Part shown: positions 1,124 through 1,501 of the stretch, in pieces
How the letters are laid out: every line of letters begins with the position of its first letter
Position numbering within the stretch: position 1 is the stretch's first letter
IMG/VR virus record: IMGVR_UViG_3300026274_000001
Length of the DNA stretch: 64,000 nt
DNA from: a virus
Lineage: Duplodnaviria; Caudoviricetes
Reading direction: 5' to 3' (one strand)
The notes under the pieces: model-generated
What the model was told of the DNA's origin: nothing
The model's input: only the letters and a program-made list of their open reading frames with translations
Database searches by the model: none
Program-made: the position numbers and the translations under genes

Positions 1124-1152
1124 TTGACATATCGCCATTGTTATAGTATTAT
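1124..1152 (+). promoter_or_regulatory. sigma70-type promoter for tmRNA
   Basis: TTGACA(1124-1129)-N17-TATTAT(1147-1152). Confidence 0.8.
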
Positions 1153-1158
1153 GTTTCC

Positions 1159-1477
1159 TTGATGCTGTTGACCTTTAGTGGAATAGATTGTTTGGACGGC
1201 GGTTCGATTCCGCCCATCTCCACCACAACAGCCTTTGTAGTTTAGCAATAGACAGGTCTAGGCGGCGCATTGATAAAGCGCATGGGTGCATGATCGAAAG
1301 GGCTGTTATGATGGGGATGACCAGGTTTCGACAGGCGATGACAAAGACTAAACTAGGTATCCGTTGAGATGACGCTCGTAAAGCGCATAAATTTGTAAAT
1401 GCAAACGATAACTCGTTCGCCATCGCCGCTTAAAAACCGGTAAGGCTGAGGGTGGTCCCCTTATAACTGAATAACCC
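1159..1477 (+). ncRNA. ssrA: circularly permuted (two-piece) tmRNA
   Basis: Acceptor piece comes first: T-arm GGCGG-TTCGATT-CCGCC (1198-1214), CATCTCC-A-CCA (1215-1225). Then an 87-nt intervening segment, then the 5' piece GGGGATG (1313), which pairs 7/7 with a G3:U wobble. Tag ORF 1401-1433 = ANDNSFAIAA*. Outer ends are approximate. Confidence 0.92.
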
Positions 1478-1501
1478 AAAAGACGCCGCAAGGCGTCTTT
1501 T
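1478..1501 (+). terminator. intrinsic terminator after tmRNA
   Basis: AAAAGACGCC-GCAA-GGCGTCTTTT. Confidence 0.85.

Follow-up and report, generated by a model that had tools for sequence, protein, structure and literature searches.

Positions 1124-1503 of the window, by which we mean the whole 64,000-nucleotide stretch of phage DNA analysed here, raise the question of whether a phage carries a complete two-piece tmRNA (ssrA) gene in working order, or whether this RNA serves another end, travels as a passenger or entered the record by error. A sequence-only reading had proposed a phage-encoded, circularly permuted and apparently functional tmRNA with its own promoter and terminator. This core reading is supported by the phage context, the family calls, the signs of selection and the presence of the gene in RNA libraries, and we consider a working phage-borne circularly permuted tmRNA gene to be the probable answer.

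The tmRNA locus lies among the genes of a soil jumbo phage

The window belongs to an uncultured jumbo phage from soil, with densely packed small ORFs that lie mostly on one strand. Its T4-type topoisomerase II subunits and ClpX are arranged as they are in Sinorhizobium phage Phosso (469 kb) and Agrobacterium phage Atu_ph07 (490 kb), to which its core proteins are about 54-65% identical (61.7% for the topoisomerase II large subunit and 64.5% for ClpX). Public runs place the window in soil, peat and permafrost metagenomes. As judged from PHROG and Pfam content and from synteny, the tmRNA locus is situated between phage genes, both here and on independent contigs of 274-327 kb. Atu_ph07 was the only hit when viral contigs were searched with two flanking proteins, and no window-specific variants turned up in two metagenome scans.

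Also encoded in the window are a class-I Trp/Tyr-type aminoacyl-tRNA synthetase, one tRNA, two Pth2 peptidyl-tRNA hydrolases, an Smr domain protein, IF3, RlaP, an RNA ligase and a full ClpX:

4221-4679, 6409-6738, 45332-45739, 61183-61803, 13158-14306 and 16166-19333: translation and RNA-repair set (two Pth2, Smr, IF3, synthetase, RlaP, RNA ligase)
59991-61256, plus strand: phage ClpX, not part of the tmRNA gene (Pfam zf-C4_ClpX and AAA_2; 431 bits against a solved bacterial ClpX)

Both Pth2 genes and a TrxB-like gene keep their order in related contigs. In the phage ClpX, the zinc finger, the GYVG pore loop and the LGF ClpP-docking loop are kept, the RKH loop is changed to KKG, and pore-2 is likewise altered. 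We scanned 78 ORFs (all those of at least 85 aa in the window outside a paralogue array at 27.5-41.7 kb) with Pfam or PHROGs and found no SmpB, ClpP or integrase among them, in agreement with the earlier remark that no smpB is present in this window. No SmpB was found in Phosso or Atu_ph07 either. Because none was found in the window, the function of the tmRNA would depend on the SmpB of the host, which it probably uses. By the same token, the phage ClpX would need host ClpP, since no ClpP was found in the window; on sequence grounds, this ClpX is a possible partner that would unfold tagged proteins.

The gene is permuted and carries a complete tRNA-like domain and tag

ARAGORN calls a permuted tmRNA (tmRNA*) at 1133-1524 with the tag ANDNSFAIAA*. 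In Rfam, the region scores 125.6 bits against RF01850 (beta_tmRNA; gathering score 84) and 123.2 bits against RF04321 (tmRNA_permuted; gathering score 47). The sequence-only reading had named both kinds of search as a check on the gene, and the call and the two scores are far above chance. Its coordinates and pairings, moreover, proved correct base for base when we re-read the sequence. The features of the gene are the following, where L040 and L041-43 denote syntenic contigs described in the next section:

1124-1129, plus strand: -35 box, TTGACA, invariant in 6 of 6 orthologous sequences
1147-1152, plus strand: -10 box, TATTAT, 17 nt past the -35 box (TACCAT in L040, TATTAT in L041-43)
1159-1225, plus strand: predicted acceptor piece of about 67 nt, with the 5' strands of the cross-piece helices, the T-arm, the 3' strand of the acceptor stem and ACCA (1222-1225)
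1226-1312, plus strand: intervening segment of 87 nt, presumed to be excised, with a closing stem, an inner hairpin and the leader UGAU (1309-1312)
1313-1503, plus strand: predicted coding piece, whose true 3' end lies between about 1450 and 1503; it contains GGGGATG (1313-1319), a D-loop-like ACCAGGUUUCGA (1320-1331), the 3' strands of the cross-piece helices, the pre-tag region (1362-1386), the tag, the 3' domain and the terminator
1401-1433, plus strand: tag frame GCA AAC GAT AAC TCG TTC GCC ATC GCC GCT TAA, encoding ANDNSFAIAA*
1478-1503, plus strand: terminator-like hairpin, with stem 1478-1487/1492-1501, a GCAA loop and a U run that forms one part of the stem

In the tRNA-like domain, which both covariance models align, the T-arm (1198-1214) has a canonical loop of 7 nt and is followed by the 3' strand of the acceptor stem, CATCTCC (1215-1221), the discriminator A1222 and an encoded CCA (1223-1225). 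All seven bases of GGGGATG pair with CATCTCC, and G1315 and U1219 form the G3:U70 wobble. The order of the halves is permuted: the 3' tRNA-like half, with its CCA end at 1225, lies upstream of the 5' half, which begins with G1 at 1313, and the 87-nt spacer sits between them. Three further helices connect the two pieces, pairing CAGGCGAT (1332-1339) with ATTGTTTG (1187-1194), ACTAA (1347-1351) with TTAGT (1175-1179) and, as the outer helix, 1161-1166 with 1356-1361. We placed the 5' end of the acceptor piece by the -10 box and by the invariant block TTGATGCTG, which starts at 1159, so this end is an approximation. So delimited, the piece is identical to L039 at 67/67 positions and to L040 at 64/67.

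The tag frame begins with an Ala resume codon, ends with hydrophobic-Ala-Ala and a stop, and has the canonical ANDxxFAxAA form. The pre-tag region ahead of it, where the pseudoknot PK1 would be expected, is nearly invariant between the alleles; two overlapping small hairpins can form there (1366-1368/1375-1377 and 1373-1376/1382-1385), with no covariation that favours either. Minimum-free-energy cofolding of the two predicted pieces formed the acceptor stem and the T-arm. Instead of the canonical cross-piece helices it paired 1188-1195 with 1467-1474, and its score was no better than that of shuffles (z +1.0). Support for the helices was taken from covariation in place of such folding.

Two other candidate features at this locus were discarded. 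We took an isrK match at 1425-1503 to be a chance hit, as it lies below threshold (22.4 bits against a gathering score of 50), and the ORFs that overlap the tmRNA (1175-1423 and 1348-1542 on the minus strand) match sequences elsewhere solely through the tmRNA itself.

Orthologues preserve the helices and the tag

Homologues of the downstream gene (1861-2337) were found in JGI metagenomes, on contigs (some 274-327 kb) that share the gene order of the window. In the syntenic slot itself, a permuted tmRNA with the tag ANDNSFAVAA is found in L039 and L040, and one with the tag ANDNVYAIAA and a spacer of 195 nt in L041-43, L046 and L047. L044 and L045 lack a tmRNA in this slot and leave no room for one.

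We tested for selection in a six-sequence alignment that represents about three lineages, so that each change is essentially one event. In this alignment, 94.3% of cells are paired in the proposed structure and 11 pairs have changed on both sides, compared with 34-50% paired cells and 0-2 double-changed pairs in slid controls; the observed covariation score was reached by none of 500 shuffles. The compensatory pairs are spread over the acceptor stem (3), the T stem (2), the stem closing the spacer (1) and the terminator (1), with two more in each of the cross-piece helices 1187-1194/1332-1339 and 1175-1179/1347-1351, both of which had been drawn in the sequence-only reading. The outer helix, 1161-1166/1356-1361, is 83% paired with 4 compensatory pairs in a wider phage set. 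Allele B has one broken P2a pair, and L040 and L042 have one broken pair in the outer helix. The G3:U pair is fixed while the three acceptor pairs adjoining it flip. Despite the small number of lineages, eleven separate compensatory pairs amount to strong comparative evidence for the structure.

The tag tells a similar story at the codon level. Eight sense codons differ from those of L041; six of the changes are synonymous, and two replace S by V and F by Y. Because the changes between the alleles are mostly synonymous, the tag is under selection as a peptide. The tmRNA block is also the most conserved stretch of the locus, with an identity to L040 of 0.93-1.00 as opposed to 0.3-0.6 in the flanks. 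Together, these comparisons indicate that structure, tag and promoter are under selection.

The same observations weigh on a different reading, in which the RNA is a decoy or modulator that binds host SmpB or ribosomes and thereby blocks or redirects host trans-translation, as proposed for an RNA of mycobacteriophage DS6A. That phage provides a precedent in the literature, a tmRNA reduced to the tRNA-like domain that inhibits host tmRNA, and with no phage SmpB found, the RNA of the window must in any case compete with host tmRNA for host SmpB. However, a decoy would not be expected to keep a ten-codon tag, an Ala resume codon and a stop with mostly synonymous differences, a pattern expected only if the tag is translated, nor does it explain the canonical ANDxxFAxAA form of the tag. 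We regard a decoy role as very unlikely and continue with a tmRNA whose tag would be translated.

A conserved stem closes the spacer

The intervening segment is closed by a stem between AACAGCCTTT (1227-1236) and AAAGGGCTGTT (1297-1307), with one bulged G. We followed this pairing, already noted in the sequence-only reading, in an alignment of 24 phage genes, namely that of the window and those of 23 IMG/VR contigs (L012-L034) picked for sharing its 5' 23-mer. The stem is confirmed there and covaries: it is 98.7% paired, 7 of its 8 pairs are compensatory, and a conserved YUGAU leader precedes G1. The invariance of the 23 bases in this alignment follows from the way in which the loci were selected. 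A stem-closed spacer is thus general among these 24 phage genes, and it is absent from the Rfam model.

The 23 IMG/VR contigs have 35-43% GC and carry permuted tmRNAs with tags such as ANDEKFALAA and spacers of 62-140 nt; all 13 of the 23 copies that were checked with Rfam are of the beta-type permuted form. Their tmRNAs are neighboured mostly by ORFans and by some phage genes. On two of these contigs (L020:3499-4182 and L022:1636-2304), a phrog_11543 gene of unknown function directly follows the tmRNA; its homologue in the window lies at 10196-10753, 9 kb downstream.

Within the spacer, the predicted fold contains an inner hairpin (1265-1268/1278-1281) with the loop AUUGAUAAA, and a core, CGCAUUGAUAAAGCG, is invariant in 6 of 6 sequences. 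The spacer is identical to that of L040 at 85/87 positions, although the neighbouring proteins are only about 70% identical. No ORF was found in the 87-nt spacer of the window and no credible one in the 195-nt spacer of L041. That the 87-nt spacer might act independently as a functional small RNA is a conjecture that we consider doubtful.

We also noticed that the spacer hairpin (GCGC-AUUGAUAAA-GCGC then AU, 1265-1281) resembles an invariant element before the tag (CGC-UCGUAAA-GCGC then AU, 1373-1388). This likeness could reflect an internal duplication or a shared binding site.

The gene has a conserved promoter and is present in RNA libraries

The putative promoter, TTGACA-N17-TATTAT, matches the sigma-70-like consensus at 11 of 12 positions. 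Its boxes and the 17-nt spacing are conserved in the orthologues, and the bases between the boxes are identical to L040 at only 8/17 positions, which bears out the promoter of the sequence-only reading. The terminator of that reading is also supported. The hairpin 1478-1501 aligns with the terminal hairpin of RF01850 and is kept in L041-43 with altered stem letters through compensatory change, but a simple terminator scan did not call it (4 U only). Right after the terminator U run lies a near-perfect palindrome, TTGCCATGTGGCAA (1500-1513), which is largely kept in all orthologues (GCCATGYGGC) and could be a second hairpin or an operator of the next transcription unit.

Contigs from three soil RNA libraries lie over the gene, spanning 1-1454, 994-1450 and 836-1332. 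The stretch 1455-1583 is uncovered by RNA-library contigs, and all three libraries resume at 1584-1588, while the DNA contig continues across. Because the RNA contigs stop where the DNA contig continues, contaminating DNA is unlikely to be their source. One RNA contig ends at 1450 with adapter sequence directly after it, a weak hint, as contigs cannot prove ends, that the RNA may stop short of the terminator hairpin. Through the spacer the RNA contigs are unbroken and, being assembled contigs only, they neither support nor exclude cleavage.

Farther downstream, run X4 has RNA contig ends at 2884 and starts at 3025. Both positions are flanked by adapter, and the orientation fits plus-strand transcripts. 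These positions hint at a transcript 3' end and a 5' end, respectively, between the genes 2484-2912 and 2991-3209.

The tmRNA cassette and its flanks have discordant histories

L040, L041 and L044 are each about 70% identical to the window in the flanking proteins. Their tmRNAs do not follow this uniform distance: that of L040 is about 96% identical to the window's, that of L041 about 75%, and in L044 it is missing. The whole slot between the homologue of 860-1093 and a 54-aa ORF varies in content. At 1090-1123, the window retains only ATGATCAATAG (3 codons), the remnant of a membrane ORF of about 69 aa that in the relatives overlaps the upstream stop codon; L040 adds a DUF4236 gene in this slot; in L044 there are two genes here, with no tmRNA. 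Runs X1 and X6 contain a low-depth variant whose departure from the window falls exactly at 1094, and its 30 loose letters matched neither the window nor any viral contig. We read this most simply as a cassette that related phages have exchanged or lost while it stayed under selection. Since a close relative (L044/L045) does without the tmRNA, the gene is dispensable.

This history could equally be told of a passenger, recently captured from the host or from another phage and moving as a cassette without benefit to its carrier. The discordance between cassette and flanks is what such a passenger would produce, as is the varying content of the slot; Phosso, for its part, has a different, alpha-type tmRNA at a non-syntenic site. 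Yet the two alleles differ at about a quarter of positions and nevertheless keep every one of their helices by compensatory change and their tag by synonymous change; the promoter is maintained, the gene is present in RNA libraries, and mobility and function are compatible with each other. A useless passenger is, to our minds, at least as improbable as a decoy, and a selected gene on a mobile cassette accounts for the locus better.

Finally, integration frequently targets tmRNA genes, and prophages can contain pieces of them (Buchholz et al. 2022, PMC9004378; Hudson et al. 2014, PMC4131195), but an assembly artefact or bacterial contamination (host ssrA misjoined to a phage contig) or an attachment-site fragment can practically be dismissed. 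A 12.7-kb DNA contig spans 994-5000 unbroken, and 92-94% of the sampled words recur in other samples. Independent contigs from further samples show the gene flanked by the same phage genes, and it is complete rather than a fragment, with no integrase among the 78 ORFs scanned.

A model for how the phage tmRNA would act

What was computed here is the identity of the gene, its permutation, the selection on it, its occurrence in RNA libraries and its conservation at a single locus. Around these results we propose a pathway in which cleavage, alanylation, reliance on host SmpB and what becomes of tagged proteins are the steps that we infer. The sigma-70-type promoter (1124-1152) would drive a single precursor that ends at the hairpin 1478-1503. 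In this precursor, the acceptor stem would be lengthened by the conserved stem that closes the 87-nt spacer. The host's tRNA-processing enzymes would then remove the spacer, with RNase P cutting at G1313 and 3'-end trimming proceeding to CCA1225. Two products would result, the acceptor piece (about 67 nt) and the coding piece (about 140-190 nt), and the acceptor stem and the three cross-piece helices would keep them joined. Host AlaRS would presumably charge the RNA with alanine by way of G3:U70 and A73, and host SmpB and EF-Tu would deliver it to ribosomes that stall during infection. From GCA1401, the resumed translation would append ANDNSFAIAA and so mark the product for ClpXP-type degradation, in which the phage ClpX may help.

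One can extend this pathway to counter-defence. Ribosomes would stall where host defences cut tRNA or mRNA, and the phage tmRNA might free them while tagging their products; the phage ClpX, with its change from RKH to KKG, might handle those products, and the gene would act beside the two Pth2 proteins, the Smr nuclease and the RNA-repair genes. We consider such a phage-owned circuit of tmRNA, ClpX and repair genes doubtful at present.

The gene by itself leaves current understanding unchanged. Its position in one genome with ClpX, two Pth2 proteins, Smr, IF3 and RNA-repair genes nonetheless bears on how huge phages keep translation running, and the comparative data give strong support to a phage gene that is selected for its structure and its tag and is not a passenger.

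The tmRNA type is a poor guide to the host

The best-scoring model is the beta one for the window, L039 and L040 (116-126 bits) and alpha_tmRNA for the syntenic L041-43 (76-79 bits). The sequence-only reading had taken the permuted form as a host clue, and this clue turns out to be weak: the window is beta and the syntenic L041-43 are alpha, and a mismatch between lineage and host has been published for Methylophilales phage Melnitz, whose tmRNA is reported to be of alpha lineage and whose host is of beta/gamma lineage (PMC9004378). We had considered that the tmRNA type might track the host, as in Phosso, where an alphaproteobacterial host goes with an alpha-type gene. This idea was undone by the alpha type of L041-43 against the beta type of the window, and by Melnitz. 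Hosts thus cannot safely be predicted from alpha/beta sub-typing of phage tmRNAs.

In a collection with one genome per species, about 185,000 species in all, the exact 5' 23-mer of the window's gene was found in no permuted tmRNA. A phage-only clade of beta-like tmRNAs, joining the window with the 23 IMG/VR contigs, was set aside. It was weakened by the occurrence of the 23-mer, by chance, in two one-piece tmRNAs of Clostridia, and further by the window's own orthologue in L041, which has a different acceptor stem.

Comparison with known tmRNAs

The closest parallel in bacteria is the betaproteobacterial two-piece tmRNA (RF01850, the best model of the clan), which was reportedly described by Sharkady and Williams in 2004. 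The promoter position, the tRNA-like domain and the nested cross-piece helices of the window's gene all align with it, as do the UAAAU-GCA resume context, the ten-residue ANDxxFAxAA tag and the terminal hairpin. By contrast, the score against the model is modest, and the model mis-registers the outermost helix, which we corrected by covariation. Because the score is modest, the 23-mer was found in no permuted tmRNA of the roughly 185,000 species and L041-43 score as alpha, membership of the beta lineage is not established.

Among phages, the nearest counterparts are the aquatic T4-like myophages, namely Melnitz and the pelagimyophages. They share with the window a complete permuted ssrA that lies just past its own promoter in a large phage of lytic type. 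As in the window, no phage smpB has been reported nearby, and the lineage of the tmRNA need not match the host (PMC9004378). The Melnitz gene is described as being under the control of a glutamine riboswitch (PMC9004378), whereas the gene of the window matches no riboswitch family in Rfam.

Phage tmRNAs had been held in the sequence-only reading to be mostly one-piece, which overstates the rarity of the two-piece form. In a 2022 survey of 18,146 phage genomes, 53 of 133 unique phage tmRNAs were two-piece, and 50 of those 53 were marine or aquatic (Buchholz et al. 2022, PMC9004378). Huge phages, moreover, are reported to carry tmRNAs and SmpB; the tmRNA database holds 79 unique phage sequences, and one tmRNA is annotated in a cultured relative, Sinorhizobium phage AP-J-162. 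The window's tmRNA differs from the aquatic majority of known phage two-piece tmRNAs in coming from soil and peat.

Phosso, too, has a permuted tmRNA (113 bits against RF04321), but of alpha type (108 bits against RF01849). It lies on the minus strand at L003:1501-2103 (PV764938.1, 349596-350198), in the gap between CDS 479 and CDS 480, where it is unannotated, and ARAGORN misses it. Its spacer is about 410 nt long, its T-loop reads GGCGGUA, which is unusual, and its tag, ANDNVSTKVALAA, has 13 residues. The neighbourhood of the Phosso gene has no protein homology to the window and is non-syntenic, and in Atu_ph07 no tmRNA was found. The alpha type and non-homologous neighbourhood in Phosso, together with the result for Atu_ph07, point to separate acquisitions.

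The one-piece tmRNAs of the mycobacteriophage Bxz1 group and of Bacillus phage G likewise come from large phages in which ssrA is present but no smpB is obvious (Hudson et al. 2014, PMC4131195). Unlike the gene of the window, they have the standard order, with no permutation and no excised spacer.

Phage two-piece tmRNAs were thus already known, and what the window contributes are modest additions. It brings a soil jumbo-phage lineage to the carriers of two-piece tmRNAs, which so far have been almost all aquatic, and new details of the gene itself: a covarying stem that closes the spacer, an unusually conserved spacer, and a cassette whose history is discordant with that of its flanks.
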